A stretch of DNA of 64,000 bases from a virus: the IMG/VR virus record IMGVR_UViG_3300020578_000011, one strand, 5' to 3'. Position 1 is the stretch's first letter, and every line of letters begins with the position of its first letter. Positions 1,773 through 61,327 of this stretch are shown one piece after another. The notes beneath the pieces are model-generated. The model saw only the letters and a list, made by a program, of their open reading frames with translations, made no database searches and was not told the DNA's origin. The position numbers were made by a program, and so were the translations under genes.

Positions 1773-2291
1773 TTAACCAAGAAGAGCTTTAAGTTCTTCT
1801 GGCAAAAGTGTTACATTAACTTGAGTTTTAGGTTTCTTCTTTTGTCCTAATTCTTGTTGACGTGTTTCAATTGCCTCGTCTACAGATGCAATTGATTGAG
1901 AATCAGCGTTGCGCTCAACAAGGGCCTTACGAAGTAATTTTAGTTCTTTTAGTTGAGCATCACTTGCATTTTGTCGCGAACCTGGACTCTTAGCTTGATA
2001 CGCAGCGCCGGCGTTTAATGCTTTGTCTTTATTGTGCCAATTACTAACCAGTCCGCTTACATATTTACGAAGCTCTGACTTGTCAGACAGCTTTTTGCGA
2101 TTTGATTCTGTATCTGAAAAAACAACTTGACCTTTTTGAAACATAGAAGTTACAACTTCTAAAATCTGAGCTCGATATTCTTTAGTCATAACAGAATGAA
2201 TATCTGTTTGATTTGCGACAAACTCAATTCCAGCTTCTTGCAAAACTTGAATTGTTGCATTAAAAACGGCCTCACGTTGAGAAATAGTCAT
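1773..2291 (-). CDS. Unknown early protein, paralogue A (AT-rich copy)
   Basis: Shares YVxGxVxNW..K..LN.G..Y..K.PG.RQ..D.QLKELKLL.KAL.ERNA with 8486..8977 and 9732..10226; AAGGAG RBS. Confidence 0.9.
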   Translation of the reverse strand: MTISQREAVFNATIQVLQEAGIEFVANQTDIHSVMTKEYRAQILEVVTSMFQKGQVVFSDTESNRKKLSDKSELRKYVSGLVSNWHNKDKALNAGAAYQAKSPGSRQNASDAQLKELKLLRKALVERNADSQSIASVDEAIETRQQELGQKKKPKTQVNVTLLPEELKALLG

Positions 2292-2345: not shown

Positions 2346-2750
2346 TCAATTAGAATCGGATATTGTTAGTGAATTGGCATTTGTTGTAAAGTCTGAAAAA
2401 GACATTGTACTTCTACCTAGCCAAGCTAAACATTCGAGCGTTTTTTCATATATTACATTTTTAGGGTTTTTATTTTTAAGCAAACCTGGACTTACGGCAA
2501 TTCCAATTTTTTCCACATTGGGTTCTGCTGTGTAGATTGCAGTCCAACAAATCCAACCATAATGATTCTCGTTTGGATCTAATAACTTAGCAACATAGGG
2601 TTTTGGCATCTGAGTTGCACAATTTGTTTTTTCGCAAAGCAATGCAAATTCCTTAAACCCGTCATTCAACTCATCTTGTAATCTGTCTTCTTCGGTTTCG
2701 TGTCCGCAGCTAGATATTAAAAACAAAGCAAACAATAAACTTTTTTTCAT
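2346..2750 (-). CDS. Predicted lipoprotein
   Basis: MKKSLLFALFLISS-C signal II/lipobox. Confidence 0.75.
   Translation of the reverse strand: MKKSLLFALFLISSCGHETEEDRLQDELNDGFKEFALLCEKTNCATQMPKPYVAKLLDPNENHYGWICWTAIYTAEPNVEKIGIAVSPGLLKNKNPKNVIYEKTLECLAWLGRSTMSFSDFTTNANSLTISDSN
2353..2360 (-). promoter_or_regulatory. TCCGATTC early promoter-like motif upstream of paralogue A
   Basis: Copy of the recurrent motif; followed by a TTGAAAAGAG/CTCTTTTCAA hairpin and the RBS. Confidence 0.7.
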
Positions 2751-2759
2751 ACAACACCC

Positions 2760-2924
2760 TCAATGAAGAATCTCCGGAATCGACTCTGTCATACTTTCAT
2801 TTGCAATGATTACATAATCAATGTATTCATCTATCATTGTTACAAGCATCTCATCTGGAGTTGTTACTATTTTTGTTTTATCTTTTACATTGTTTAAAAG
2901 AGCAATGAGTTGTTCAACAGTCAT
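2760..2924 (-). CDS. Small hypothetical protein (54 aa, MTVEQLIALL...)
   Basis: Hand-translated; AGGGG RBS and TCCGATTC motif 21 nt upstream. Confidence 0.7.
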   Translation of the reverse strand: MTVEQLIALLNNVKDKTKIVTTPDEMLVTMIDEYIDYVIIANESMTESIPEILH

Positions 2925-2945
2925 GTATTTCCCCTGATTTTAATA

Positions 2946-2953
2946 GAATCGGA
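2946..2953 (-). promoter_or_regulatory. TCCGATTC early promoter-like motif
   Basis: 21 nt upstream of the ATG at 2924. Confidence 0.7.
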
Positions 2954-2955
2954 AA

Positions 2956-3222
2956 TCAATGATAAACTCTGCCACAGGTAGCTTTTTTAACAATTAGTGG
3001 ATTATGACCTGCTTTTTCTAATTCTTTAGCCAGTTTTTTAACAGCCTCGCATTTGTTTTTTCCGTGCGCAGCAAAATCATCATTATCTATTTTTAACAGA
3101 CAAAGATGAGGATCCACTACAGTAACGCACAGCTCTGGTAGTTTTGGTTCTTGTTTTGGTTCTTGTTTTGGAATTGTACTGCATGAACTCAATACAAATG
3201 ATAACAATAGTATTTTTTTCAT
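2956..3222 (-). CDS. Predicted small lipoprotein
   Basis: MKKILLLSFVLSS-C lipobox; PKQE repeat; four further Cys. Confidence 0.75.
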   Translation of the reverse strand: MKKILLLSFVLSSCSTIPKQEPKQEPKLPELCVTVVDPHLCLLKIDNDDFAAHGKNKCEAVKKLAKELEKAGHNPLIVKKATCGRVYH

Positions 3223-3305
3223 TTGACACCTTCAAAATATCCACTTATAACTAATATTAAAAAACTAATCATAATAAATACAACTATATAATCAATGTAA
3301 ATCAT
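3219..3305 (-). CDS. 28-aa single-TM peptide
   Basis: Hand-translated MIYIDYIVVFIMISFLILVISGYFEGVK; ATGA overlap with the next gene. Confidence 0.5.
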   Translation of the reverse strand: MIYIDYIVVFIMISFLILVISGYFEGVK

Positions 3306-3605
3306 ATCTACGAAAATCCCCTGTTGATAATATTTTTAAACCATGGTTGGTGTTTTATGTTTTTGATATTTTTATTAAAAACATAAACAATATGACCATA
3401 AAATGAAATTTTATGACTGGGGCAATACCTAAATATAACGTAATATACCTTTTTTAGTTATTTTATATTAATTATACAAAAGTTCATCGAGTACGGGGGT
3501 GTGTTAATCATCCTTCAGTATTTGATTCAAGTCGTAAACATCCACATCCATTCCGTGCTTGATGATTTTTGTGTCATAATCGAAATGCTGCTTTTTATAA
3601 AAATA

Positions 3606-3740
3606 TTAGAATTCATCTTTAAGTTCTTTACTAATATCATTTAATGTTTTTTTAGGTTTTATAAAAAAGTTAATTATTAAATCAGTAATAGTTAAAAACA
3701 ACACGACTGAAATTGTAATTATTAGTAAATTTAATAACAT
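3606..3740 (-). CDS. 44-aa membrane peptide, similar to 9572..9670
   Basis: Hand-translated MLLNLLIITISVVLFLTITDLIINFFIKPKK... Confidence 0.55.
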   Translation of the reverse strand: MLLNLLIITISVVLFLTITDLIINFFIKPKKTLNDISKELKDEF

Positions 3741-3955
3741 ATTTCACTACTTTCAATAAACTTATTAAAAATCTCGGGATATCTGCCTACATAACCATTG
3801 TCTTCAAAGAAATAATAAAGAGCCTCACCAGGACGAAGACCGTCTTCAAAACTATCACGCCAGTGATAATCTTCAAAACTATTGGCATCAAGTCCCACTG
3901 CCTCAACGCAGAGACGATTAACTTCTTTCATCCAGATTTTGAAATTCATCTTCAT
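3731..3955 (-). CDS. Hypothetical protein
   Basis: GGGAG RBS; co-oriented in the early cluster. Confidence 0.7.
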   Translation of the reverse strand: MKMNFKIWMKEVNRLCVEAVGLDANSFEDYHWRDSFEDGLRPGEALYYFFEDNGYVGRYPEIFNKFIESSEICY

Positions 3956-4061
3956 TAGCTTCTCCCAAAAGATTTACTTAATCATCACTCTCGGCTTTAG
4001 CTTCACCAAAATCGCGTTGTTCTTGGGCTTGATTGGTAACCGCGCTTCCGGTATCGAGTTT

Positions 4062-4247
4062 TTAAGAATTTCTTTTTTGATTCACTTCTTGCAGCTGCGC
4101 AAGAAGACCATTGATTCTTTGAATGCTTTGCTTAATTTTCTCATGTCTTTCTTCAAGAGTGATTTCTCGTTTCTCGTTTTGAGGTTGCTTTTGCTGCACT
4201 TGTTGTTTGTTTCGAAAGCTGTTGATATCGATGACGTTGTCATTCAT
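4062..4247 (-). CDS. Small coiled-coil hypothetical protein
   Basis: AAGGAG RBS; MNDNVIDINSFR start. Confidence 0.7.
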   Translation of the reverse strand: MNDNVIDINSFRNKQQVQQKQPQNEKREITLEERHEKIKQSIQRINGLLAQLQEVNQKRNS

Positions 4248-4258
4248 AACGATCTCCT

Positions 4259-4594
4259 TTAGGGTTTGAGAGCATCGAACAAAACCTTAGCATACGGAGA
4301 CATTTCTTCTTTTTCATATGAAGCCTCATAGGCTTTGTAAAACTCTTTATCTAAAGCTTCTTTCTCGTCTTCATCTTCATCGTGATAAGTTCCGTCTTGA
4401 TGTTCAAAGATGCGGAAATCTCCTATTTCATAATCAAGCCATTCATTAAATCCTTGATTATATGCAACTTTATCTAATTCTTTTAAGGCATATGAGGTAG
4501 AGAAAGAATAAGTTGCCACCTTTACTTGCTCGGGATACACTTCATCAAGAAATTCGTCATACATCTTTTCAAGATCTTGCATATCTAGTTCCAT
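4259..4594 (-). CDS. Highly acidic hypothetical protein
   Basis: GAGGAGG RBS; D/E- and aromatic-rich; own TCCGATTC motif upstream. Confidence 0.8.
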   Translation of the reverse strand: MELDMQDLEKMYDEFLDEVYPEQVKVATYSFSTSYALKELDKVAYNQGFNEWLDYEIGDFRIFEHQDGTYHDEDEDEKEALDKEFYKAYEASYEKEEMSPYAKVLFDALKP

Positions 4595-4620
4595 GTTGTC
4601 CTCCTCTTTGTAATAAATAA

Positions 4621-4628
4621 GAATCGGA
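4621..4628 (-). promoter_or_regulatory. TCCGATTC early promoter-like motif
   Basis: Intergenic, 26 nt upstream of the ATG at 4594. Confidence 0.7.
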
Positions 4629-4638
4629 TTTAACCATT

Positions 4639-4884
4639 TTAGTCTTCAATAAAACCAATATATACATCTATTTGATATCCGTATGCCCAGCATTGATTAT
4701 CTAGAGTAAAGATAGCATCTTTTTTATCAACAATAGAAATAGTATCAACAGGTTGACGTTGACCATGTCTCAAACCTAACCCTATGTTTTTTTCAATAGA
4801 TACTATTTTTGCCTTTTCTGGCGGCAAGCTTCCCCAACAACCGCTCCACAGTACGTCATCTCCAATGCTTAAAAAAGCTGTCAT
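4639..4884 (-). CDS. Hypothetical protein
   Basis: GAGG RBS; ORF track. Confidence 0.7.
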   Translation of the reverse strand: MTAFLSIGDDVLWSGCWGSLPPEKAKIVSIEKNIGLGLRHGQRQPVDTISIVDKKDAIFTLDNQCWAYGYQIDVYIGFIED

Positions 4885-5006
4885 AACAACCTCTTATTTG
4901 TCATACGACAATCTTTACAAATCGACATCAATAATGTCACAATCCGAATCTGTAGTTTTTCTAAAGGTCGCATAGTCCATTTAAGAATCCCTTATTGCTG
5001 ATTTGT

Positions 5007-5174
5007 TTACTCAGTGCGAGTTCTTTTGGTCAAGGCATATTTCTTTTTCATCCTACATATTCCTGTCCAAGACATATCGTTCTGAATACATAACTTATAA
5101 AGAACATAGTGTAAGTCGTTTAAAGCTTTAAATTTTTTCTCTATCTTTAAATCGCATACTCGTATGTCTCTCAT
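5007..5174 (-). CDS. Hypothetical protein
   Basis: ORF track 5007..5216; probable ATG start at 5174. Confidence 0.45.
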   Translation of the reverse strand: MRDIRVCDLKIEKKFKALNDLHYVLYKLCIQNDMSWTGICRMKKKYALTKRTRTE

Positions 5175-5230
5175 GCAATTCTCGCTCTGTGTAGCAGTGT
5201 CAGCGGTCATGACCACTTAATATTAGTGAT

Positions 5231-5452
5231 TTACTTCTTAAGTAAAGAATATTTTATTTTAAGAAACACTAATAAGATACTAAACCTTGTTATGCTAATG
5301 AAAGAAGTCTCTTTTAGAGATGGGTTCCAAGCTAATAGATTGTCTATCTGCCGTTGTTGGTGGTGTGTTTTTTGCAAATCTACCCCAGGCATTTTTTCCT
5401 GCAAGTCCGCGATTCGAAGATTTCTTCTTCTTCTCAAATCGTCGTGCATCAT
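5231..5452 (-). CDS. Hypothetical protein
   Basis: Abuts the stop of the upstream gene. Confidence 0.55.
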   Translation of the reverse strand: MMHDDLRRRRNLRIADLQEKMPGVDLQKTHHQQRQIDNLLAWNPSLKETSFISITRFSILLVFLKIKYSLLKK

Positions 5453-5454
5453 TG

Positions 5455-5952
5455 CTATACAATCCTGTAAGTATCAAATTGACTAAAATATGGATAAACA
5501 AGCTCATATCCAAGTTGATTAACTATATCTTCGACAACTGAGACTAGCATATAATAACCATGGCATTGATAGCCCGTTTTTTGATCTATAAACGCTATCT
5601 CAATGGTATGTGGAAATACTTCATTCATTGCACTTGTTCCACTTGACCAAGGGCCTTTAATGTTGCAGGTCGAACCGTCCGTCATTGTTAGATTAAACGT
5701 GTGGCCATAGAAACCACTTGAATCATTAAGTCGTTTGTAATAAAACTGAACAAAGCCAATTTCATTCTTTCCCCAGTATAGATCACCAACATGCTTGCCG
5801 TTGTCGCGATCATGGTCTTCTATCTTTTGAAATAAGATATCACTCGGCTCTCTTCCTCTAATATAAAGACGAAGTTTGTTAGTTGAGACCGTATCGATCC
5901 AGAATTCATAGCCATTAGAATATAATCTGTTTGGTTTTGCGACTTGTTCCAT
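5455..5952 (-). CDS. Hypothetical protein
   Basis: GAGGTGA RBS; 165 aa. Confidence 0.8.
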   Translation of the reverse strand: MEQVAKPNRLYSNGYEFWIDTVSTNKLRLYIRGREPSDILFQKIEDHDRDNGKHVGDLYWGKNEIGFVQFYYKRLNDSSGFYGHTFNLTMTDGSTCNIKGPWSSGTSAMNEVFPHTIEIAFIDQKTGYQCHGYYMLVSVVEDIVNQLGYELVYPYFSQFDTYRIV

Positions 5953-6136
5953 GGCTCACCTCGTGAATGGATTTTAGGATTTCATCGAAATAATGATTCT
6001 TATTTGTTACTTTTGCTATTCGCAAAATACCTAATAGCATTTTAAATCTCTGTTTACTTCTTAAACCTTCAACGGTTACAACTAGTTTGTCAAATTCATC
6101 GTACTTATTTTCAGAAACAGATTTGTTAGATTTCAT
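5915..6136 (-). CDS. Hypothetical protein
   Basis: Abuts the upstream stop. Confidence 0.6.
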   Translation of the reverse strand: MKSNKSVSENKYDEFDKLVVTVEGLRSKQRFKMLLGILRIAKVTNKNHYFDEILKSIHEVSHGTSRKTKQIIF

Positions 6137-6574
6137 TTATAAAACTTTTTCTTCAATAGTTTCAAACTCAATTAATTGATTTAGATAATTGAGAATATCT
6201 TGCTCATCCACACCTGCTATTATTGCGAACTTTATACAATTAGAAATATCAGACACATGTCCGCATTTCATTTCAGTAATCAAAAAAAACCTATCTGTTC
6301 CCATGTGTGCATCTTGAGCACAACTTGAAATTGCCCCAGAGGCAAAATAAAACGCATGATTGAGAATATTTGCATCTGCAATTTTACGTGCTAAATTACT
6401 TGCTATCTCACATTCTTTTTTTGAAGAAAGACCATTGATATAATTATCTATAACTTTAATAACATTAGTTAAATCATCATCAGGGCATATTTTACTTGCC
6501 AAAATGGCAGAAAATAAATTAAGTCTATTGATTTGTTTATTAGTAAGCTTGCGGCCACAATAGTAAATATTCAT
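6137..6574 (-). CDS. Hypothetical protein
   Basis: GGGAG RBS; 145 aa. Confidence 0.75.
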   Translation of the reverse strand: MNIYYCGRKLTNKQINRLNLFSAILASKICPDDDLTNVIKVIDNYINGLSSKKECEIASNLARKIADANILNHAFYFASGAISSCAQDAHMGTDRFFLITEMKCGHVSDISNCIKFAIIAGVDEQDILNYLNQLIEFETIEEKVL

Positions 6575-6595
6575 AATAAATCTCCCTAAGATTTA

Positions 6596-7000
6596 CTATA
6601 GATTCGAATTTAATTGCTTTTCAACAGCGCAACGAAACAAGTAATTCATAGCTAACATTTTTATTTGCTCTCGTTCTACTACTCTCGCCCCGTCGAGCGA
6701 CCAGCTAAATGTAGAATAGGGTTCTGGATAGAATCGGATCTGACAATAGCCCGCACTTCTATCTGAGATAAGTTTACCATTGGTTTGTTTAAGAAGACGT
6801 TTTAACTTAAATGAATGCTTATTCAAATCATGTCGAAGTTTGTTGTGCGCTTCGAATTCACGTTTTAATTTGTTAATTATTTCAATAGGTTTTCTATTAT
6901 CAACTGCATACATAAGTTTATAACGCAATGAGCTACGTTTGCGAGCCCATTCGTTTCTAGCATTAACTATGAAGCAGATCTCTTCATATACAGAGTTCAT
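6596..7000 (-). CDS. Basic hypothetical protein
   Basis: GAGG RBS; TCCGAATC motif at 7028-7035 upstream. Confidence 0.75.
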   Translation of the reverse strand: MNSVYEEICFIVNARNEWARKRSSLRYKLMYAVDNRKPIEIINKLKREFEAHNKLRHDLNKHSFKLKRLLKQTNGKLISDRSAGYCQIRFYPEPYSTFSWSLDGARVVEREQIKMLAMNYLFRCAVEKQLNSNL

Positions 7001-7221
7001 AAAACCTCTGACCTACACGTTGAAATAGATTCGGATAATACTTTATTTTATAAAATCCTCAACATCTACAAAGGATAGGTTTACTTTACTGTTTTTTATA
7101 ACTACTAATCTCATCAACACCCAAGTTAGGTGTATTCTAGTTGTAGTTCTATTGTTCCACTCTATTGGTCTAAAGTAACTCATTTAATCATGTATTCGAA
7201 GTTGGGATTGATCAACGTGGT

Positions 7222-7443
7222 TCATAAATCACATACCTCTTCTAAAGTCATCTCTTCTGTCGTGACTAATTCTAGTTCGTCTATTGCATAGAAGTGAGAA
7301 TAGCTTTTTGCATGGGCATCTGCTGCCTGGGCGTCAGTTGCATTTATCAGTCTTTGCATATCTTTTTCCGCCTGAGCGCGAACGGTATAGACCTTATCCA
7401 CGGCGATTTCGACGTCATTAAATACTATGATATAGACTTTCAT
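7222..7443 (-). CDS. Hypothetical protein
   Basis: Likely start MKVYII at 7443 after AAGGA. Confidence 0.7.
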   Translation of the reverse strand: MKVYIIVFNDVEIAVDKVYTVRAQAEKDMQRLINATDAQAADAHAKSYSHFYAIDELELVTTEEMTLEEVCDL

Positions 7444-7519
7444 CTGTCTTCCTTGAGACGACCTGAGTCCGCGCCGACACTGTTCACACAATGAAGAAAA
7501 AAACTATGAAGCATGTTGT

Positions 7520-7723
7520 TCATTCAGAGCTCCAAAAGAACTTGGAGATGCTCTGCAGCATCCCCATCTTCAAGGCTTCGGCTTTCTCTATCGCTACCAA
7601 CAAAGCTCTGCTGGCTGCTTTGAGGGAGTCTATGTCCTTGTAATCAGAGGAACTTAGTAAGTTTTCAGCTTCCCATATCAAGGTTCTAATAGTTTCTATT
7701 TCGTCTGAATTGTTAGGTTTCAC
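7520..7723 (-). CDS. Hypothetical protein
   Basis: AAGGAG RBS, GTG start. Confidence 0.65.
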   Translation of the reverse strand: MKPNNSDEIETIRTLIWEAENLLSSSDYKDIDSLKAASRALLVAIEKAEALKMGMLQSISKFFWSSE

Positions 7724-7866
7724 ACCTTATCTCCTTTAAACTCACCACAAGCGCATCCTCAAAAAAAAACGCGTTTGCAACTCAAAATATGATTACGAAT
7801 AGACGGTACTCTCCAAAAAACAGTTACACACCAAACCAAAGAACCACAATTGAAATCAACGGAGTA

Positions 7867-8112
7867 TTAAACGGGGTTGTCTTCTAGCAAGAACTCAATC
7901 AATCCATTGAGCTGTCTCTCATTAAGACGGCCAATGATTGAAGTCCGATAGTCATCTGCATCATAAGAGCAACCGTAAGTGTATTCGATCACACCCAGTT
8001 CCAAAAGCATCTCTAAGCCCTTCTCGCCAGGGAATCTAGCACTAAACATTCTATCAACCATACGAGCAACAGGAGTAAGCTCACGATCACCAGAGACCAT
8101 AAGTACTGTCAT
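7867..8112 (-). CDS. Hypothetical protein
   Basis: GGAGGT RBS before the ATG at 8112. Confidence 0.7.
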   Translation of the reverse strand: MTVLMVSGDRELTPVARMVDRMFSARFPGEKGLEMLLELGVIEYTYGCSYDADDYRTSIIGRLNERQLNGLIEFLLEDNPV

Positions 8113-8124
8113 ACCCACCTCCAA

Positions 8125-8310
8125 TCATCTACGTAGTTTAATAATTGGATGACCTTCGTCTGTTACGTCAGATGTAGCGTCTGACAACTCAAGATCTACA
8201 CAGCCAGCACCAAAGTATTCATCTTGCTCTAGATCAAGAATGGTTACATGATTGTTTAACTGATTTTCACTTAAAAGACTAAGGGCTTCTAGCAGTTCTT
8301 TATAGGTCAT
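8125..8310 (-). CDS. Small acidic hypothetical protein (MTYKELLEAL...)
   Basis: GGAGGT RBS; TCCGATTC at 8338-8345. Confidence 0.75.
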   Translation of the reverse strand: MTYKELLEALSLLSENQLNNHVTILDLEQDEYFGAGCVDLELSDATSDVTDEGHPIIKLRR

Positions 8311-8485
8311 AGTGACACCTCCATCTATGGATGTAGAGAATCGGATGGAACGCTTCGCTGTCCCAGATTGCCCCAGTGAAAATGGGATAAAATGAGTTAA
8401 AAGTGGGTGGGTGGTGGCCGCGCACTCTCTCACTCAACTTTCCACTTAAATTTTATTAGTGCACTTCCATGTGCACCTATCTCAC

Positions 8486-8977
8486 TCAGAGCAAGTCTCT
8501 TAGGTGCTCTGGGATTTTACTAAGATCCACTTCGATTTTGCTTTGTGGCTTGATCTCGCTGAGACGCTGCGCAATTGCTTCATCGACCTTGGCAACTGCT
8601 TCAGGCTGGGCATTGCGCTCGATGAGAGCCTTGCGCAGTAGCTTTAGCTCTTTCAGCTGTGGATCACTTGAACCCTGGCGAACACCCGGGTTTTTGGGTG
8701 CATACTTTGTTCCACCATTGAGCTCGGTCGACTTGCGGAACCAGTTGTTCACCATACCTACTACGTAGGTACGGACCTTAGATGGTGAGTCGTACTTGAT
8801 TCGAGCACCTGGACTAAAATCAGTCCCATGCTCGAGGATCGACTGGGTCACTAGATCGACCACCTGCTTAGTCTGATCCTTGGTGATGTACTCCAAGACT
8901 GGAGTACCGGGTTTGAACGACTCACCGAGAACTTCTTGAGTAGCTGCAACAACTGACGCTGACTGTGACATAGTCAT
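8486..8977 (-). CDS. Unknown early protein, paralogue B
   Basis: Aligns end-to-end with 9732..10226; GGAGGT RBS; CCCGATCC motif at 9022-9029. Confidence 0.9.
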   Translation of the reverse strand: MTMSQSASVVAATQEVLGESFKPGTPVLEYITKDQTKQVVDLVTQSILEHGTDFSPGARIKYDSPSKVRTYVVGMVNNWFRKSTELNGGTKYAPKNPGVRQGSSDPQLKELKLLRKALIERNAQPEAVAKVDEAIAQRLSEIKPQSKIEVDLSKIPEHLRDLL

Positions 8978-9075
8978 AAAACACCTCCAATAGTTGAGCT
9001 CAGGCCCAACATATATATAAAGGATCGGGAGAGACTGGGACCGTCCCAGCGTTCGCAGTGCTTCGGGTGCCGCTA

Positions 9076-9471
9076 CTACCGTTGGCCCGCGAACAATATA
9101 TTATAGAGTCGGTTGACGGCGTAGCGGTGTCGGAGCTGTTGGCTCCGACTGGGGGAGCTAGCGAGGACTAAGTCCTCGCTTTCCCCTGGTGTTCTCACTA
9201 TGCTCTCGGCTCGCCAGCGGACTGGAGAGCCGTCGTGTGGCTTGTGCCAGTTGGCCGTGTATTCCACGGTCTCGAACTCGTCTTCGAGTTCGACCAAGTT
9301 CGAGAGCATTTGGAGATGCTCTGCGAGTTCTGGATCGTGGTTGCCAACTAGTTCGTCGCTATCTTGGTACCTGAAGGCGCCGCCATCGATGGCGTAGTAC
9401 TCGGTGTACTCGCTGTCTGTGATGTCAGTGATGAATGCATTTACCGCGCCTTCGAGTCTTACATTGTACAT
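9076..9471 (-). CDS. Acidic hypothetical protein
   Basis: GAGGTGA RBS; 131 aa. Confidence 0.75.
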   Translation of the reverse strand: MYNVRLEGAVNAFITDITDSEYTEYYAIDGGAFRYQDSDELVGNHDPELAEHLQMLSNLVELEDEFETVEYTANWHKPHDGSPVRWRAESIVRTPGESEDLVLASSPSRSQQLRHRYAVNRLYNILFAGQR

Positions 9472-9606
9472 AAGTCACCTCATTGTTAATATATAAGCTA
9501 TATTTAATTATATAGCTTATTATTAACAATATATTATAGAGTCGATTGACGGCGTAGCAGTGTCGGAGCATTCAGCGCCGACTGATTCTCTCTAGAACGA
9601 AGTCCT
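9092..9606. repeat. Imperfect ~85-bp direct repeat (9092-9176 and 9525-9606) carrying a hairpin and promoter-like motif
   Basis: AACAATATATTATAGAGTCGRTTGACGGCGTAGCRGTGTCGGAGC...CCGACTG...AAGTCCT in both copies. Confidence 0.9.
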
Positions 9607-9670
9607 TTATTACATCGGAGATAGTTAGTAAGATATATCCGAACACGAAGATAATAAGTAAACTAGTCAT
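9572..9670 (-). CDS. 32-aa membrane peptide
   Basis: GGAGGA RBS; MTSLLIIFVFGYILLTISDVIKDFVLERISRR. Confidence 0.7.
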   Translation of the reverse strand: MTSLLIIFVFGYILLTISDVIKDFVLERISRR

Positions 9671-9693
9671 GATCGTATCCTCCTAGTTTAGGG

Positions 9694-9720
9694 AAAGGTT
9701 GGGCTCAGAAGAGCCCAACC
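9694..9720 (-). terminator. Hairpin downstream of paralogue C (terminator or processing site)
   Basis: GGTTGGGCTC-N4-GAGCCCAACC perfect 10-bp stem followed by only TTT on the minus strand. Confidence 0.6.
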
Positions 9721-9731
9721 GGAACGGAACC

Positions 9732-10226
9732 TCAGACGAGGTCCCGGAGGTGATCTGGGATCAGATCCAGATTCACTTCGACCTTCTTGGCTGCGGGTTG
9801 GATCTCGGAGATTCGCTGGTCGATCGCTTCCTGCACCTTGGCCAGAGCATCTGGTGCTGCGTTCCGCTCGGTCAAGGCCTTCATCAGGAGCTTGAGCTCC
9901 TTGAGCTGGGGGTCGGTCGAACCTTGGCGAGATCCTGGGTTCTTGATCTCGTACTTGGTTCCACCGTTCAACTCCTTGCCTTTGCGGAACCAGTTGTTGA
10001 CCATACCAACCACGTAGCTTCTCAGCTTCTTGGGATCGGCGAACTTCTCACGAGCCTGAGCGGAGAGATCGGTCTCGAACTCTTGGATCGACTGAGTCAC
10101 AAGGTCAACAACCGAGGCAGTCTCGTCCTTCGAGATGTACTCGAGGATCGGAGCACCTGGACGGAAGGATTCACCGAGAACTTGCTTGGTATAGAACACT
10201 ACTGATTCGGATTGTGACATAACCAT
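9732..10226 (-). CDS. Unknown early protein, paralogue C (GC-rich copy, first gene of the leftward unit)
   Basis: AGGAGGT RBS; homologous to 1773..2291 and 8486..8977. Confidence 0.9.
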   Translation of the reverse strand: MVMSQSESVVFYTKQVLGESFRPGAPILEYISKDETASVVDLVTQSIQEFETDLSAQAREKFADPKKLRSYVVGMVNNWFRKGKELNGGTKYEIKNPGSRQGSTDPQLKELKLLMKALTERNAAPDALAKVQEAIDQRISEIQPAAKKVEVNLDLIPDHLRDLV

Positions 10227-10257
10227 ATAACACCTCCTGGTTGAACAAACAGATAGA

Positions 10258-10431
10258 GTATCGGATCAAACGCCGTACACTATCGATAACAGAATCGTAA
10301 GACAAAGATAGAATAGTATCGGAATCTCCACATTCACCTCCAGTTTCGGGTGGGTGCTTTCCATAATACTTTATAGAATCGGATACCCGGTAGCCTTTCC
10401 TTTTTAGGGGACCTCTTATTATAGTATCGGT
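10258..10431 (-). promoter_or_regulatory. Four tandem (T/A)CCGATWC promoter-like motifs
   Basis: Copies at 10258-10265, 10316-10323, 10376-10383 and 10424-10431, all facing paralogue C. Confidence 0.75.
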
Positions 10432-11060
10432 ACCGCGGCGCAAATAATCCCTAGCTGGGGCATTGCAAATACAAGGGCCCGGGCCCTCAATACAGAAACA
10501 GGCCCGGTAGCTTGTAGAAAAAAGTCAGGTACCAGTACTTGATTTGCACACAATAGTATAGTGTGATTTATAGAGCGTGCATTTTAAAAACACATTGTAT
10601 ATTCATACAATTAATCAGTTTTGCTTATTCTATACTTCCTGTAACCTACAACTGCCACCACATAGGGTGCATATAGTCGCCACAACTGCCACCATATAGG
10701 GTGCACATTCTCCTATTCCCTTGTCAAAGATCCACTCCTATTATACCCGCCCAGGGCCTGCGCGGACGCCCACTACATCGTTGACATCATTGAAATAAGT
10801 GAGAAAGTTATAGTTAAATTACGTCGTTTACTTCGCTGATATAAAGCGCGATATCGCGCTAGGATCTTCAGCGAATAGACTCGACGAGGATAGGTGGTGC
10901 TTTAGTTGTAGGTTAGGCGCGGCATCATAGGTGCAGTGGATTACAGGCGCTGGCATAAGGCATGATTGATAAAAAATATGGGTTGATTTAAAATTAGTGA
11001 AAGTTAAGTGTGTGCACTTAAAAAAGCATAGTGTTTTCATGGGGTTCTAAAAAAACTTAA
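10432..11060. other. Non-coding palindrome/repeat-rich junction (candidate genome end or packaging site)
   Basis: Palindromes 10474-10487 and 10845-10860; 24-bp direct repeat at 10648/10682; 12-bp inverted repeat at 10642/10904. Confidence 0.45.
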
Positions 11061-11064
11061 AAAA

Positions 11065-11856
11065 TCAAGAAAGAAACAATCTTCGTTCAGCTTCTCTACG
11101 ACGAGTTAAACCAGCCATAACTTGACCACGGGACTTGTTGTATTTTAAAAACTCTTCTGCGGCAAGAACAAAGTTACGTTGATTAACGAGCTTAAGAAGA
11201 GTCGATTGCTTTAGATTACCAGCACCGACGTTGTAGGTAAACGAAACTAGAGCGGCAAATTGATTGTCATTGACTTCTACTTTTAGAAGCTTGCTTACTT
11301 GATCGCAAAAGCTTTGAAGATGATGGACGAGTGCTTGCTCAGCTTGCTCCTGTGTCCATACTGTCTTTGGACCAATTGGTGAGTGTTTTCCGTCTACCAG
11401 CGGAGAGAATTGATCAAGACCAGTTGCACCGTAGCCAATTGTCCAAGGATCACCTGGAAGAGATTTCCAACCTTCTTTTCTGGCGTTTTGTGTTTTTAAC
11501 AACTCTTTACCTAGAGGAGAGGCAGGATCGGCATATGCCTTTAACTTACAACCTTCGAAAGATTTTATTAGGTCAACACCATCTTTGTTTATCTTTTTCA
11601 TATTTTCTTCTCCAAATTTTTGTTCTATAGCAAAATCTAAAATTTTTTGCTTAGCTGCTTGTTTGTAGATTTCTGCAACTTCATATTCTGATCTTGCACG
11701 AAGAGCTCCGGTGGCTTCCCAACAACTCATCCAACCAGTTCCATCTTGCCTTTCTGTTAATTTAGCAAGAGGACAAATTTTACATGGATTATTTCTGAGA
11801 TCTTCACAATCACCAGTCGAAGCTATATGCTCTAATATCTTAGAGACGCGATTCAT
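11065..11856 (-). CDS. GH24 lysozyme (endolysin) with a Cys-rich N-terminal extension; probable internal start at 11601
   Basis: LIKSFEG..KAY.D...WTIGYG...NQFAALVSFTYNVG...GLTRRREAERRLF. Confidence 0.9.
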   Translation of the reverse strand: MNRVSKILEHIASTGDCEDLRNNPCKICPLAKLTERQDGTGWMSCWEATGALRARSEYEVAEIYKQAAKQKILDFAIEQKFGEENMKKINKDGVDLIKSFEGCKLKAYADPASPLGKELLKTQNARKEGWKSLPGDPWTIGYGATGLDQFSPLVDGKHSPIGPKTVWTQEQAEQALVHHLQSFCDQVSKLLKVEVNDNQFAALVSFTYNVGAGNLKQSTLLKLVNQRNFVLAAEEFLKYNKSRGQVMAGLTRRREAERRLFLS

Positions 11857-11903
11857 CGCAATACTCCATGTATAATAGGTTATACCTAGGAGAGGATTTT
11901 ATC

Positions 11904-12710
11904 ATGTCACAAAAGATGACCAAACCTTCAGCCACTTTTCCAAATAGCTCTACTTCTTCAAGTAGTCAGTTTCCAATAAACTTACCCGATCCAAGTATGT
12001 TTGGACAAAACTTTGATCAACTAATTCAAAGACGCGGAATCAGATTTGTTCATCATAGGGCTTTGCCATGTCCTAACATGAACTCTCTTAATGACAATTC
12101 ACATTCTCCAATTTGCCCACACTGTGATGGATCTGGTATCTTTTACTATGAGCCAAGAGAGATAGTTGGCGTATTTATTTCTAATTCTGTAGAGAAAAAC
12201 TTTGAATATCAAGGAGTGTGGGAAGTTGGAACTGCCACTATTACTTTTCCAGTTGAATACGACAATGGAGATCAGGCTGAATTTTCTATGTATGATAAAT
12301 TAGTAATAACTGATTATACAGTGAGAATGTGGGAAAAGAAAGAATACGAACCCAGACCAGGCGACACTCAACAGCTTAGGTATCCAATTGAAAAAGTAGA
12401 ATATATGATAACAGCAACCGATACACTTGTTAAAGAATATAAACAAGGTGAAGATTTTACTGTAGAAAATGGATTAATAAAATGGATTTCTGGAAAAACT
12501 CCACCTTACGATACTCTTAACGAAATCGGTGATACTTTTGCTGTTAGTTATTTTGCAAATCCAGTTTATATTGTTCTTCAACCATTAAGAGAACTGCGTG
12601 TATCTCAACAAATGGTTGACGGTGTTAAGACAACCAAAAGACTACCTCAACATATAGTAGTTAAAAGAGACTTTTTTGTTAACAAACCAGAAAAAATATC
12701 TGGAATGTGA
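11904..12710 (+). CDS. Head-tail joining/neck protein
   Basis: AGGAG RBS; CP...CPHCDGSG motif; first gene of the structural operon. Confidence 0.6.
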   Translation: MSQKMTKPSATFPNSSTSSSSQFPINLPDPSMFGQNFDQLIQRRGIRFVHHRALPCPNMNSLNDNSHSPICPHCDGSGIFYYEPREIVGVFISNSVEKNFEYQGVWEVGTATITFPVEYDNGDQAEFSMYDKLVITDYTVRMWEKKEYEPRPGDTQQLRYPIEKVEYMITATDTLVKEYKQGEDFTVENGLIKWISGKTPPYDTLNEIGDTFAVSYFANPVYIVLQPLRELRVSQQMVDGVKTTKRLPQHIVVKRDFFVNKPEKISGM

Positions 12711-18286: not shown

Positions 18287-18835
18287 ATGGCAGATAAGAA
18301 GACTAGTTTAATAACAGGTAGTAATGCTAAAATCAAGATCAACGGCGTTACTCTTGCATACGCAACAGATGTTCAGTACGATGTTTCGGTTCAAACAATT
18401 CCAATCGAAACAATGGGACGCTACGAAGTGCTGGCAAATGAGCCAATCGCAACTATCGTAAGTGGTTCGTTTTCTGTTGTTCGCTATACTAAGGCAGCAG
18501 CAGATGGAAAAATATCTGGAGCAGCTGCCAGTGGCAACGGTGTTGGAAATTGGAAAGCAGGTACTGGAGTTGGCTTACATACACACTTCAATCCTGCTGA
18601 CATACTGAAATCTGCAACAGTTGATATCGAACTTTTTAGAAAAACACAGAACGAACCAACCGCAGCAGAAGGCGTAGAATCTTTTAAGAAAATACTAGAT
18701 GCTAGATTGACTAGGATGGGTGGAAGTGTTAACAAGCGCGGTATTCTTATGGAATCTTTCGCCTTTGTTGCTGAAGCAATTCAGGACGATTCATTTACTC
18801 ACGGCAAGTCCGGTGAAAACGATCTTTCAGATTAA
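18287..18835 (+). CDS. Tail tube protein 1
   Basis: Follows the sheath; ITGSNAKIKINGVTLAYATD; strong RBS. Confidence 0.8.
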   Translation: MADKKTSLITGSNAKIKINGVTLAYATDVQYDVSVQTIPIETMGRYEVLANEPIATIVSGSFSVVRYTKAAADGKISGAAASGNGVGNWKAGTGVGLHTHFNPADILKSATVDIELFRKTQNEPTAAEGVESFKKILDARLTRMGGSVNKRGILMESFAFVAEAIQDDSFTHGKSGENDLSD

Positions 18836-54015: not shown

Positions 54016-55419
54016 ATGAGAATAGAAATCCTTAATCATGTAATAAGGATAGACGATCCAGATAAAGAAATAGAATCGGATTTAATTAAAAAATTAACCT
54101 ATACAGATAAGTCAAAACAATATCAAATAAAAAAAATGCAAAAAAATCCATTTTCAATAAAATCTAAACTTTATCAAAAGTTAATAAATGAAGTTAATGG
54201 ATCTTTAATTGAAAAAGTTGATAATACTATTTTTGTCCCATCTGGTTTTGCTAAATATGTTATTGACTTAGTATCTAAAATTAAATCTGTTGAAATTATT
54301 GATTCAAGATACGAAACAGGTTCAAACATTGCCCTACCGTGGGCAAGTGGTTCTTATTTACTTGAATTGAGAGATTATCAAAAAGAAGCCATCGACATAG
54401 CAGTATCAAATTGGCGAGGCATAATAAACTTTGCAACAGGTCTTGGAAAAACTAAAACAGCAATATCTTTAATACGAACACTAAAAAAAAAGACACTTAT
54501 AATATGTCCATCAAACTCTGTTGCAAATCAATTTAAAGACGAATTAATTCTTGCATTTGGTCAGAATAGAATTGGTTTTATAGGCGATAGTAAATTTAAA
54601 CCTTCAGATATAACCGTATGTATAGCTGCATCTGCTAATAATCACATAGATAAAATAAAGAAATTTGATTTAGGTTTAGTTATATTTGACGAATGTCATC
54701 ATTGTCCTGCCAATACCTTTTATTCTATATCACAGGGATTGTCGCATGTTGGACGTATGTACGGATTAACTGCCACTTCTTTTAGATCTGATGGTAAAGA
54801 TGTCATGATAACAGCAGATTGTGGAGACATATTGGTTAAAAGAGATGCAGCATGGGGAATTGCAAATAACTGGTTAGCTCAACCATATTTTATAGTTAGA
54901 AAAGTAAATACAACAGGTTTTGATTTTAAAGATGACAAATTAAAATCATATAAAAATCATGTTTTAAATTCAAAAGAAATGACATCAAGAATAGAATCAG
55001 ATGCTAAAAACTTTATACAAGCAAACAAATCAGTACTTATATTAGTAGATGAGGTTGAGCATGGAGAATCTTTATCAAAAGCTCTAAAAATTCCTTTTGC
55101 TCAAGGTGAAGATAAACAATCAAATGAATATGTCGATCAATTAAACAAAGGTCTTATTCCTGGTCTTGTTGGAACAGATGGAAAAATATCAGAAGGAACA
55201 GATACTAGAAATGTAGATATTCTTATATTAGCTAATTTTAGTGCATCTAAAGGAGCCGTTTTACAAGCCGTAGGTAGAGGTCTGAGAAAAACAGATACAA
55301 AAAATCATGTTATAATTTTAGATTATATCCCAGCTGGATCTACTATGTTAAGTAGACATGCTAATCAACGTATTTCTTTTTATCAAGAAATTACGTCTAA
55401 TATAAAATTGGTAGAATAA
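54016..55419 (+). CDS. Superfamily 2 DNA helicase (UvsW-like)
   Basis: LRDYQ; ATGLGKT; DECHH; GLTAT; QAVGRGLR. Confidence 0.9.
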   Translation: MRIEILNHVIRIDDPDKEIESDLIKKLTYTDKSKQYQIKKMQKNPFSIKSKLYQKLINEVNGSLIEKVDNTIFVPSGFAKYVIDLVSKIKSVEIIDSRYETGSNIALPWASGSYLLELRDYQKEAIDIAVSNWRGIINFATGLGKTKTAISLIRTLKKKTLIICPSNSVANQFKDELILAFGQNRIGFIGDSKFKPSDITVCIAASANNHIDKIKKFDLGLVIFDECHHCPANTFYSISQGLSHVGRMYGLTATSFRSDGKDVMITADCGDILVKRDAAWGIANNWLAQPYFIVRKVNTTGFDFKDDKLKSYKNHVLNSKEMTSRIESDAKNFIQANKSVLILVDEVEHGESLSKALKIPFAQGEDKQSNEYVDQLNKGLIPGLVGTDGKISEGTDTRNVDILILANFSASKGAVLQAVGRGLRKTDTKNHVIILDYIPAGSTMLSRHANQRISFYQEITSNIKLVE

Positions 55420-59581: not shown

Positions 59582-61327
59582 ATGCGAATCGTTTCTATTG
59601 ATATTGAAAATTTTTTAAGTATAGAAAAAGCACATATTGACTTTAAAAATAATGGAACTCTTTTAATAGAAGGATGGAATCACGATACAAATTCCGCAAA
59701 TGGAGCAGGTAAGACATCTATTGTTACTGCTATATCTTTTATTTTATATGGCAAATCTCCTAGAATATCTGGATCTGGCTTTGTACGTAAAAACTGTAAA
59801 AATTCAACATGTAGTGCCATATTGCATAAGAAAAATGATATTTATTTTGTTAAAAGAACAAAACCAGGTAGGTTTTTTGCTACAAAAAACAATTTAGAAA
59901 TATCTGAAGAAGAATTTTATAAAGATTTAATTTTAGATTATGATACTTTTTTATTGGTTCAATACTTTGCTCAAGGTCTTGGTCAACGCTTCTTAGATCT
60001 AAATGATACAGATCGTAAGGATCTTTTTATTAGGTTAACTAATTCATATAATTTTTCTAAAATAAAAGAAAACATAGACTTAGAGATAAAAGACTTAAAT
60101 ATAAAAAATAATGATCTTATTATTAAAGAGTCTTCTATATTGGCAAAAATTAATACATATAAAGAATCTGAGCAAAACATTGATGCATTATTGAAAGCAC
60201 AGCAAAAAAATACGACATGCATAGATGAAACTTTGATAAAAATAAAAGATTTAGAAAAAATAAAGAAACCAGATATTTCTAAAATAATAGATCTTCAAAA
60301 CAAAACTCAATTAGAAATTGATAAAATAACTCAAAACAAAGGAGCTTCTCAGCTTCTACGTAGAAAATTAAAACAAATAGAATTAGAACAACCACCAGAA
60401 GACCTGTGCGATGGTATTTGTCCATCTTGTTCGCAGGCAATAGATATAGTTAATGGAGATTTCTACAGACACGATTCCTCGTCCTTTGAGGCAAAAATAA
60501 AATCTTGGAACTTAAATAAAAAAAATAAACTATTAGAAATGACAGAATCTATAAAAGAATTAGAATCTTCATTAAGCAAAGAAGAAGATTATAAAAACAT
60601 AATAGACAAATGCCAAGATAAGATAAAAGAATTAAAAGATAGTTATATTAAAACAGAATCAAGACTTTTAGAATTAAAAAGTTTTATAAAATTAAAATAC
60701 CAAGAACTTGAATCTATTAAGTCATCCATAGATTTTCAAAACAATTTATTAAACAATATTACTAAAAATCAAAATATTTTATTAAAAATATCAGAAGAAA
60801 AAAATGAAACAACAAATAAAATCAATATATTACAGACAGTTTCTCAAATAGTATCGCCAACTGGTATTCAGGCATATATACTTGATTCTGTTGTTGATAC
60901 TTTTAATGATAAAATCAATTCAAATTTACAAGTTTCGTGGCCAAACTGCTCGTATGAGCTTAAAACATTTAAGGAAAACAAATCTGGCTCTGTTGTTGCA
61001 AAAATGTCGGATAATTTAACAATAAACGGCGAATCTATGTCAGTAGGTGCTCTATCAGGAGGAGAGAGAAGAAACCTAGCACTTTCTATAGATCTTGCTT
61101 TATTAGATACTTATATTTCTTATTCTGGATTAGATTTAAATCCAATAATACTAGACGAACCATTTGATCATTTAGATTTTTCAAATAGATCAAGAATATT
61201 CGAGCTTTTGCAAGAGTCTTCAAAGAATAGACAAATAATAGTAATAGACCATTCCTCTGAATTTAAAGCTCTTTTTGATAATATAATAACTGTTTCTAAG
61301 AAAAATGATATATCAACCCTATTGTGA
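59582..61327 (+). CDS. SbcC/Rad50-like ATPase (gp46-like)
   Basis: IENFLS; NGAGKT; CPSC zinc hook; LSGGE; ILDEPF; VIDH. Confidence 0.92.
   Translation: MRIVSIDIENFLSIEKAHIDFKNNGTLLIEGWNHDTNSANGAGKTSIVTAISFILYGKSPRISGSGFVRKNCKNSTCSAILHKKNDIYFVKRTKPGRFFATKNNLEISEEEFYKDLILDYDTFLLVQYFAQGLGQRFLDLNDTDRKDLFIRLTNSYNFSKIKENIDLEIKDLNIKNNDLIIKESSILAKINTYKESEQNIDALLKAQQKNTTCIDETLIKIKDLEKIKKPDISKIIDLQNKTQLEIDKITQNKGASQLLRRKLKQIELEQPPEDLCDGICPSCSQAIDIVNGDFYRHDSSSFEAKIKSWNLNKKNKLLEMTESIKELESSLSKEEDYKNIIDKCQDKIKELKDSYIKTESRLLELKSFIKLKYQELESIKSSIDFQNNLLNNITKNQNILLKISEEKNETTNKINILQTVSQIVSPTGIQAYILDSVVDTFNDKINSNLQVSWPNCSYELKTFKENKSGSVVAKMSDNLTINGESMSVGALSGGERRNLALSIDLALLDTYISYSGLDLNPIILDEPFDHLDFSNRSRIFELLQESSKNRQIIVIDHSSEFKALFDNIITVSKKNDISTLL

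Follow-up and report, generated by a model that had tools for sequence, protein, structure and literature searches.

At the head of its presumed early gene cluster, an uncultured freshwater phage spells its silent codon positions in a GC-rich hand that fades over the following few kilobases, and its relatives do so in the same place. The phage is AT-rich, about 150 kb long and has been assembled repeatedly from freshwater metagenomes; the stretch analysed here, 64,000 nucleotides of IMG/VR virus record IMGVR_UViG_3300020578_000011, is called the window throughout. Its longest gap without AAAA or TTTT (either of which is counted below as a run) spans 8978..10401, or 1423 bp, the next longest gaps being 534 and 353 bp, and forms the first 1.4 kb of a row of small minus-strand genes which, judging from the layout, would be the early cluster. 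An earlier note on this DNA had described the absence of runs from 8982 to 10400 and the presence of a single AATT, and both statements were borne out. The run-free block is part of a conserved, position-graded silent-site regime at the early-cluster head of an uncultured phage clade. The reading we prefer, and to which we give about an even chance, is that the block is the expression-optimised, host-like start of a presumed immediate-early transcription unit.

Silent sites at the head of the early cluster

The GC content of the block is 0.504, with peaks of 0.59, against 0.341 for the window as a whole, and the counts made by hand in the earlier note (52% for the line at 9961, 62% for that at 9841 and 17% for that at 60241) are correct. 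This compositional shift sits almost wholly at third codon positions, and is thus synonymous. Gene A, which opens the cluster, has a GC content of 0.60, 0.35 and 0.68 at first, second and third codon positions (GC1, GC2 and GC3), whereas a paralog at the far end of the cluster, 8 kb downstream, has values of 0.57, 0.35 and 0.21. GC3 is 0.67 in gene B and 0.53 in gene C, a second paralog of A that lies just beyond the block and marks the onset of the decay, compared with a median of 0.22 for the genes of the window and 0.13-0.31 for late genes. At first and second codon positions C, like A, does not differ from the AT-rich paralog. The individual codons are correspondingly lopsided. Gene A alone uses TTC in 5/5 cases, ATC in 8/8 and AAG in 14/15; A and B together use TTC for 9/9 phenylalanines, ATC for 11/13 isoleucines, AAG for 15/16 lysines and CTC for 16/28 leucines, where the rest of the window prefers TTT (0.90), ATA (0.55), AAA (0.83) and TTA (0.48). 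Conversely, ATA, AGA and TTA account for 2/13, 3/18 and 1/28 of their respective choices in A and B, as opposed to 0.55, 0.69 and 0.48 elsewhere in the window.

The direction of this preference (TTC, ATC, AAC, AAG) matches that of late genes which would be highly expressed. The sheath gene of one relative (L017) uses TTC in 22/25 and ATC in 32/42 cases, compared with 1/6 and 1/9 in the neighbouring gene, and the sheath gene of another (L015) shares the TTC/ATC/AAC/AAG direction. In the window itself, a putative tail tube gene following the sheath (18287-18835, 182 aa) has a G/C-ending share of 0.50 in its Phe, Ile, Asn, Lys and Tyr codons, against a median of 0.18. Its codon-bias signature differs from that of the head genes.

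How far the missing runs are a matter of composition depends on the null model applied. With independent bases 11 runs would be expected in the block, and dinucleotide-preserving shuffles of it contain a mean of 7.2 (P(0) = 0.0015), against none observed. Synonymous-codon shuffles, in which the protein and the codon usage of each gene are kept, reduce the expectation to about 2.1 runs in A, a small peptide gene and B, with P(0) ~0.10, so that the absence of runs from the coding part is explained by codon usage. Base shuffles of the four spacers of the block give 5.9 expected runs where none is seen (P(0) = 0.01), while spacers elsewhere in the window carry runs at 1.57 times expectation. When 300-bp windows of matched GC are compared in the window phage and its relatives, those from the head contain 30-50% fewer runs than those from elsewhere. 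Run depletion is therefore mostly, though not fully, a consequence of GC, and specifically of GC3. The earlier note had treated the depletion as a target of selection in its own right; for the coding part this gives way to codon usage, whereas the spacers, the AAA and TTT words of gene A (discussed below) and the GC-matched windows do show depletion beyond what codon usage or GC accounts for. As the block was chosen as the maximum of the window, P values for this single stretch are post hoc, and replication in relatives provides the stronger support.

A gradient kept across the clade

A profile search with the gene A family recovered 68 viral loci, on contigs that reach 177 kb in length, with 112 distinct family members and usually two to four per genome. 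In relatives the shared gene order comprises a NUDIX gene, a gene of 268 aa, a divergent lysozyme gene, a gap, one or more family genes and a series of small genes. The earlier note had proposed looking for the depletion at the same position in relatives, and all of those with this gene order have a GC-elevated, run-poor head that fades downstream over 3-8 kb. Run-free gaps of 1.5-2.2 kb surround members of the gene A family in L015, L040, L069, L042, L080, L029 and L032, and in a further locus (L003) five successive windows of 500 bp, about 2.5 kb in all, are free of runs. When genes are grouped by how far they lie from the first gene of the head (0-1.5, 1.5-3, 3-5, 5-8 and 8-13 kb), GC3 declines from 0.62 through 0.40 and 0.29 to 0.25 in the window phage, whose cluster has no genes in the last bin; the corresponding series are 0.59, 0.61, 0.55, 0.41 and 0.30 in L013, 0.75, 0.72, 0.69, 0.67 and 0.50 in L015, and 0.56, 0.68, 0.63, 0.39 and 0.37 in L018. 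Over the same distance the use of ATA, AGA, TTA, AAA and TTT climbs in four lineages. GC3 of individual family members reaches 0.95 in loci of about 50% GC.

The multi-copy family offers a comparison of like with like. Where two family copies lie at least 5 kb apart on one contig, the downstream copy has the lower GC3 in 16/16 contigs (mean difference -0.17, binomial p = 3e-5). Among copies closer together than 5 kb there is no trend in GC3. Position-specific selection had been proposed in the earlier note, and it is to this that both the paired test and the fall of GC3 with distance in four lineages point. On a quick tree of the family, whose branching is provisional, the label of high or low GC3 changes at least 22 times, which indicates that GC3 class is not simply inherited with gene lineage. 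One loosely supported group holds five GC3-rich copies located 2.8-4.0 kb downstream of the first family copy of their locus together with a GC3-poor copy at 8.7 kb; in a neighbouring group a copy at 1.4 kb is GC3-rich and two copies some 8-10 kb down their clusters are GC3-poor. What GC3 follows is thus how far a copy lies from the head of the early cluster, not its ancestry. Since silent sites are saturated at these divergences, the pattern must be maintained, whether through selection or through some directional process that depends on position.

Transfer RNA genes are found in the clade, downstream of the head in at least one case. A tRNA scan of the window returned none, but in 20-kb stretches around family copies tRNA-Ile(UAU) occurs in five loci, accompanied in two of them (L067 and L074) by tRNA-Arg(UCU) and tRNA-Leu(UAA). 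For L018 the distance from the head copy down to the tRNA-Ile gene is about 8 kb. A tmRNA-like gene was also called by ARAGORN in L074.

Signals beyond codon usage

Within gene A, AAA or TTT occurs once where 7.0 would be expected under synonymous shuffling (P = 0.001), these words being avoided across codon borders. The same holds on a larger scale for 33 head family genes, in which AAA is found 129 times against 232 expected from codon usage (0.56) and TTT 34 times against 64 (0.53). Words of the A-tract class number 51 against 146 expected, TpA-containing four-letter A/T words 81 against 185, and AAAT, with 11 occurrences against 43.8, is the most depleted of all A/T-only 4-mers; as the 33 genes are homologs, z-scores for these depletions are inflated. 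GC-rich 4-mers also fall below expectation (853 against 1072), while CCC and GGG are avoided across codon borders as much, or nearly as much, as in the genome at large. Overall, A/T-rich words stand at 0.35-0.56 of expectation in the head family genes and at 0.80-0.95 in other genes of the same phages. Other genes of the head show weak avoidance (0.80-0.85), and the AT-rich paralogs show none.

Anatomy of the block and its surroundings

The phage is a large one with a contractile tail, and its genes in the window include those for a tail sheath, baseplate proteins, a GroEL-like chaperonin, a helicase and an SbcC-like nuclease. The closest isolate is Myxococcus phage Mx1, with a sheath identity of only 32%. 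The longest contig carrying gene C measures 149 kb, and the same protein is found on at least 23 contigs from many samples. Between 11856 and 1773 every gene is on the minus strand, in the order of a lysozyme gene (11065-11856), a non-coding junction of 620 bp and the long row of small genes of unknown function. Features of the block, its surroundings and the tRNA genes of relatives are listed in Table 1.

Table 1. Features of the run-free block and its surroundings in the window, with tRNA genes of related loci
Feature	Position	Strand	Description
Non-coding junction between lysozyme gene and block	10441..11064	.	Rich in A/T runs; 27-nt direct repeat at 10648-10674 and 10682-10708; palindrome GGGCCCGGGCCC
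Four stacked promoter-like motifs	10251..10440	-	CCGATWCT then TATAAT-like hexamers, ahead of gene A; sequence reading
Gene A	9732..10226	-	164 aa; strong Shine-Dalgarno site AGGAGG
GC-rich hairpin 3' of gene A	9697..9720	-	Followed by CTTTCCC; sequence reading, not called by terminator scan
Hydrophobic peptide gene	9572..9670	-	32 aa; between A and B; own Shine-Dalgarno site AGGAGG
60-nt hairpin-plus-promoter unit, copy 2	9525..9584	-	Ahead of gene B; GTCGG..CCGAC hairpin then CGACTCTATAATATATTG; direct repeat
AT-rich near-palindrome	9486..9526	.	AAGCTATATAATT/AAATATAGCTT; between promoter unit and gene B; ~85% AT, no run of four
Gene B	9076..9471	-	131-aa frame; acidic N-terminal part
60-nt hairpin-plus-promoter unit, copy 1	9092..9151	-	Ahead of gene C; direct repeat, 88% identical to 9525-9584
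Gene C	8486..8977	-	163 aa; 70% identity to A; 5 runs
Four small genes	7222..8433	-	Intermediate GC3 (0.33-0.53); fading part of the gradient
Third paralog	1773..2291	-	172 aa; 17 runs; internal position control
tRNA genes in relatives	L018:8857-8932; L035:13184-13259; L067:9030-9350; L070:8083-8154; L074 (9 genes)
Ten-tRNA array	L043:8488-9642

Small genes of the early cluster share a motif that probably serves as their promoter. The window has nine copies of YCCGATWCT, all of them on the minus strand, compared with an expectation of 1.1; eight fall within 2352-10383 and precede small genes of the early cluster, and one lies at 54072. The longer form CGAYWCTATWR has 6 matches against 0.41 expected. 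The copies of YCCGATWCT have no conserved -35 box, and we take the motif to resemble the -10 element of sigma-28 type promoters (GCCGATAA). As the earlier note had recognised, it is common to the block and to the AT-rich part of the cluster. The run-free zone begins at 10401, between the first and the second of the stacked motifs. Beyond that point the picture is reversed, with 24 runs in 10227-11064 against 11.7 expected, every one of them upstream of 10401 and hence in the 660 bp directly preceding the block.

Downstream of A, the peptide gene and B lie GC-rich hairpins (9697-9720, 9562-9582, 9160-9180 and 9129-9149) with no U-tracts behind them, which means that they are not canonical intrinsic terminators; the one after gene A may be an RNA end, a processing site or a weak terminator. 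A scan for consensus promoters and terminators passed over both the CCGAT-type motifs and the U-tract-free hairpins, and an Rfam scan of 7000-12000 gave a chance-level match only. In the two 60-nt units the hairpin loops differ between copies while the pairing of the stems is mostly kept. The near-palindrome ahead of gene B is a candidate operator, and the spacer in which it lies (9472-9571) has no run against 2.7 expected. The true C-terminus of gene B is uncertain because the 3' part of its frame spans two hairpins and the next promoter unit, and the peptide gene is called in just one independent assembly (L012).

Members of the gene A family are all-helical proteins of 150-200 aa with the conserved core YVxGMVNNWFRK..LNGG..Y..KNPGSR. 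Neither Pfam nor PHROGs has a match for A, B, C or the third paralog. An AlphaFold2 model of A (pLDDT 88.7) found nothing in the PDB by Foldseek and a single uncharacterised phage protein in BFVD, and its alignments by VIA-align were confined to helical hairpins with Z <=6, under the level that is meaningful for helical proteins. Among 56 homologs of the gene A protein, all are on metagenome contigs, most of them short, and the closest that is not this phage's own is 79% identical; longer contigs or flanks fetched for these homologs display the same phage gene order. A scan of genome collections returned four loci, two of them on MAG (metagenome-assembled genome) contigs of 3.5 and 2.7 kb and two on one 146.7-kb contig that is also listed as viral. 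The latter, LNEN01000305.1 (146,658 bp, L020/L022), is filed under a Cytophagales MAG and agrees in length and coordinates with an IMG/VR viral contig of the clade (L061/L084). This is probably phage DNA that ended up in a bacterial bin, and is weak evidence of a host at best.

The block is not an artefact of assembly, since eight contigs from different samples and assemblers match it or parts of it at 99.9-100%. On its left the window stops within a collagen-like fibre gene because the assembly breaks there; another contig (L005) extends past this point. Three assemblies end at 10677 or 10694, within the 27-nt direct repeat of the junction, and further contig breaks are scattered over the early region at 4778, 6610, 7875 and 9621. 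Clustering of contig ends was considered as the mark of a genome terminus and rejected, as breaks occur at several places in the early region and those in the junction fall in a short direct repeat. Position 5193, inside the early cluster, is the exact end of three independent assemblies (L006, L010 and L011), which suggests a strain-variable breakpoint. Taken together, the repeated breaks look like strain-level mosaicism of the early region.

What could maintain the gradient

In the reading we prefer, the first genes (A, the small peptide gene, B and C) would be read from a single incoming genome copy in competition with host messages. They carry stacked or individual promoter-like motifs and strong Shine-Dalgarno sites, and their GC-ending codons (TTC, ATC, AAC, AAG, CTC and NNC), with almost no ATA, AGA or TTA, would be host-like where the rest of the genome is AT-ending. 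Such genes would have to rely on host tRNAs alone, before the clade's own tRNAs for ATA, AGA and TTA had been made. Selection on synonymous sites would then be strongest at the head and would weaken downstream as expression comes later or lower. The absence of A/T runs would be mainly a by-product of swapping out AAA, TTT, ATT, ATA and TTA codons, to which selection for fidelity, for intact transcripts or for both would add a lesser, direct pressure against A/T-rich runs where codons meet and in spacers. That the third-position shift takes out codons for which the clade has tRNAs of its own (ATA, AGA and TTA) suggests an explanation in terms of expression or translation, and that the zone starts at the promoter stack, with run-rich DNA just upstream, means that its boundary follows the transcription unit.

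Several observations weigh against this preference. The shift of the head spans all codon classes, including the replacement of NNT by NNC in ACN, GTN, CTN and TCN (C:T 0.74) and of NNA by NNG (0.50), whereas the putative tube gene is at background in those classes (0.07 and 0.12, respectively); an argument from tRNAs would not by itself predict this, short of a host of markedly high GC. Words of three and four letters that are rich in A/T are depleted past codon usage, each word about as strongly as its reverse complement, and such strand symmetry looks like a constraint at the level of the nucleic acid. In four lineages the spacers of the head differ from those of the tail in GC (0.48 against 0.38) and in the ratio of observed to expected runs (0.73 against 1.36), a bias that is beyond the reach of translation. 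Avoidance of internal Shine-Dalgarno-like motifs was tried as a head-specific mark of high expression and ruled out, being genome-wide and equal or stronger in tail genes. The component that acts on the nucleic acid could serve fidelity or the integrity of transcripts, or be directed at host factors able to recognise AT-rich DNA or RNA.

The last of these options can be made the whole explanation. First-used DNA would be kept free of runs against xenogeneic silencers of the H-NS, Lsr2, MvaT or Rok kind, or against AT-directed defence sensors and nucleases, and high GC3 would be the means to that end. We consider this unlikely, even though a good deal of the evidence suits it: the GC shift reaches spacers as well as all codon classes, A/T-rich words are depleted symmetrically and beyond codon usage, runs are depleted in coding and non-coding DNA alike, the operator-like spacer has no run of four in spite of being 85% AT, and the gradient is kept across a clade with genomes of 36 to 54% GC. 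Gene B is moreover acidic in the manner of DNA-mimic anti-defence proteins, although this is a resemblance only. Against it stands the run-rich stretch of 660 bp immediately upstream (24 runs against 11.7), which would place a silencer nucleation site beside the very promoters to be spared. The scarcity of GC-rich 4-mers (853 against 1072) is not predicted by it, and the boundary coincides with a transcription start and with no mapped DNA end. The earlier note had gone further in this direction, invoking first-entering DNA or an end held in the tail, for which there is no basis: the window stops on its left where an assembly broke off, the junction at 10.4-11.1 kb lies inside many contigs, and no genome end is shown near the block. 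Run-rich DNA just upstream fits poorly with silencer evasion and with a mechanical constraint at a DNA end alike. A bolder variant is that this clade of ~135-177-kb uncultured contractile-tailed phages keeps a graded nucleic-acid 'stealth' zone over the first 2-8 kb of the early unit, in which selection clears A/T runs from silent sites and spacers and thereby holds off AT-sensing host factors (silencers, RNases, defence sensors) until the first phage proteins have been made, with the helical family and acidic gene B as counter-measures that open the AT-rich remainder. We regard this, too, as doubtful.

Selection might equally act on the transcript, if the first messages had to be long-lived and spared early termination: U-runs after GC hairpins terminate transcription, A/U-rich single strands admit RNases of the RNase E or toxin type, and also Rho should translation lag. 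The start of the run-free zone at the promoter stack, the lack of U-tracts behind the hairpins after A, the peptide gene and B, the run-free spacers within the unit and the position of AAAT as the most depleted A/T-only 4-mer (11 against 43.8) are all in keeping with this, but A-runs and T-runs are equally depleted although termination concerns U-runs only. As a complete account we think it rather improbable, and it overlaps with the preferred explanation rather than excluding it. A neutral process, such as GC-biased gene conversion or another mutational gradient at a recombination hot spot at the head of a mosaic early region, would affect spacers and all codon classes and decay over a few kilobases, as is seen, and the repeated assembly breaks (5193 three times, 10677/10694 three times) fit strain-level mosaicism. 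Yet the gradient is one-sided, leaving the lysozyme gene and the upstream junction AT-rich, and a blind bias would not predict the unevenness of the shift, with a G/C-ending share in the head of 0.82-0.88 for Phe, Ile, Asn and Lys codons against 0.62 in four-fold boxes, where C (0.38) exceeds G (0.245). Run avoidance at codon junctions, given codon usage, needs selection, and we hold a purely neutral origin to be very unlikely.

Least credible of all is that the block is a GC-rich cassette acquired from another phage or a host and not yet ameliorated. Atypical composition, a modular build of promoter, gene and hairpin units and the mosaic nature of the early region would recommend it, but this idea, which the earlier note had already judged a poor explanation, is now largely refuted. 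The same position is GC3-rich in every relative examined, whatever the background GC; searches of 50,697 phage records with the DNA of the block and, by tblastn, with gene A gave no match, and the closest homolog of A outside this phage has only 79% protein identity; and the block bears the phage's own promoter-like motif. With synonymous sites saturated at this divergence, a foreign signature should in any case have decayed.

Comparison with known systems

Phage genomes tend to have a higher AT content than those of their hosts, a handicap under which the launch of the phage programme is only partly understood. With two to four family copies in each genome, the clade is a clean natural experiment that makes testable how far position-dependent, and possibly time-dependent, selection on silent sites reaches, and whether its target is translation by host tRNAs or the nucleic acid itself. 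A local peak of GC3 could also help to find the start of the early programme in uncultured phage genomes, and the case cautions that a GC-rich island need not be foreign DNA.

The phenomenon is of a known kind. In phages, early genes are on record as differing from late ones in their choice of synonymous codons and in GC (Mioduser, Goz and Tuller 2017, PMC5683454), and the presumed early genes described here likewise differ from late ones in both. What is new is the detail. The contrast is extreme, with GC3 of 0.68 against 0.22 and, in relatives, of up to 0.95 against a locus GC of about 0.5; it forms a steep gradient along one transcription unit over 3-8 kb rather than two classes; spacers and the avoidance of A/T runs at codon junctions are part of it; and the multi-copy family provides a paired, paralog-based demonstration, with timing in our case presumed from layout. 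A related idea, from the literature on T4 and later work, is that phage-encoded tRNAs supply codons which the phage uses often and its host seldom.

Early regions at the leading end of phage genomes are familiar from the left end of T7 with its gene 0.3 (ocr), the first-step-transfer region of T5 and the host-takeover module in the terminal redundancy of SPO1. Like these, the block is a short stretch of small genes with strong promoters that would open the early programme, plausibly for host takeover or anti-defence. Unlike them, it has no physical genome end shown nearby, and none of its genes resembles their proteins; nor is staged entry known in contractile-tailed phages.

AT-rich invading DNA is what the xenogeneic silencers H-NS, Lsr2, MvaT and Rok target, and a GC-rich, run-free region next to promoters would be a poor substrate for them. 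Phages counter such silencing, as in the case of T4 MotB (PMC7827196; see also PMC8501957). The answers known from phages are silencer-binding proteins rather than recoded DNA, and here run-rich DNA lies upstream of the promoters. Coding sequences and codon pairs are known to avoid mononucleotide runs, which guards against slippage (Tats, Tenson and Remm 2008, PMC2585594), and AAA, TTT, CCC and GGG across codon borders all fall below the prediction from codon usage in the phages studied here; the head family differs in that its A/T-rich words are depleted far more than those of other genes in the same phages. Finally, the sharp local GC excess of self-contained modules of promoter, gene and hairpin recalls genomic islands and morons, from which the head of the early cluster is set apart by an excess that is conserved in place across the clade, follows position and comes with the phage's own promoter-like motif.

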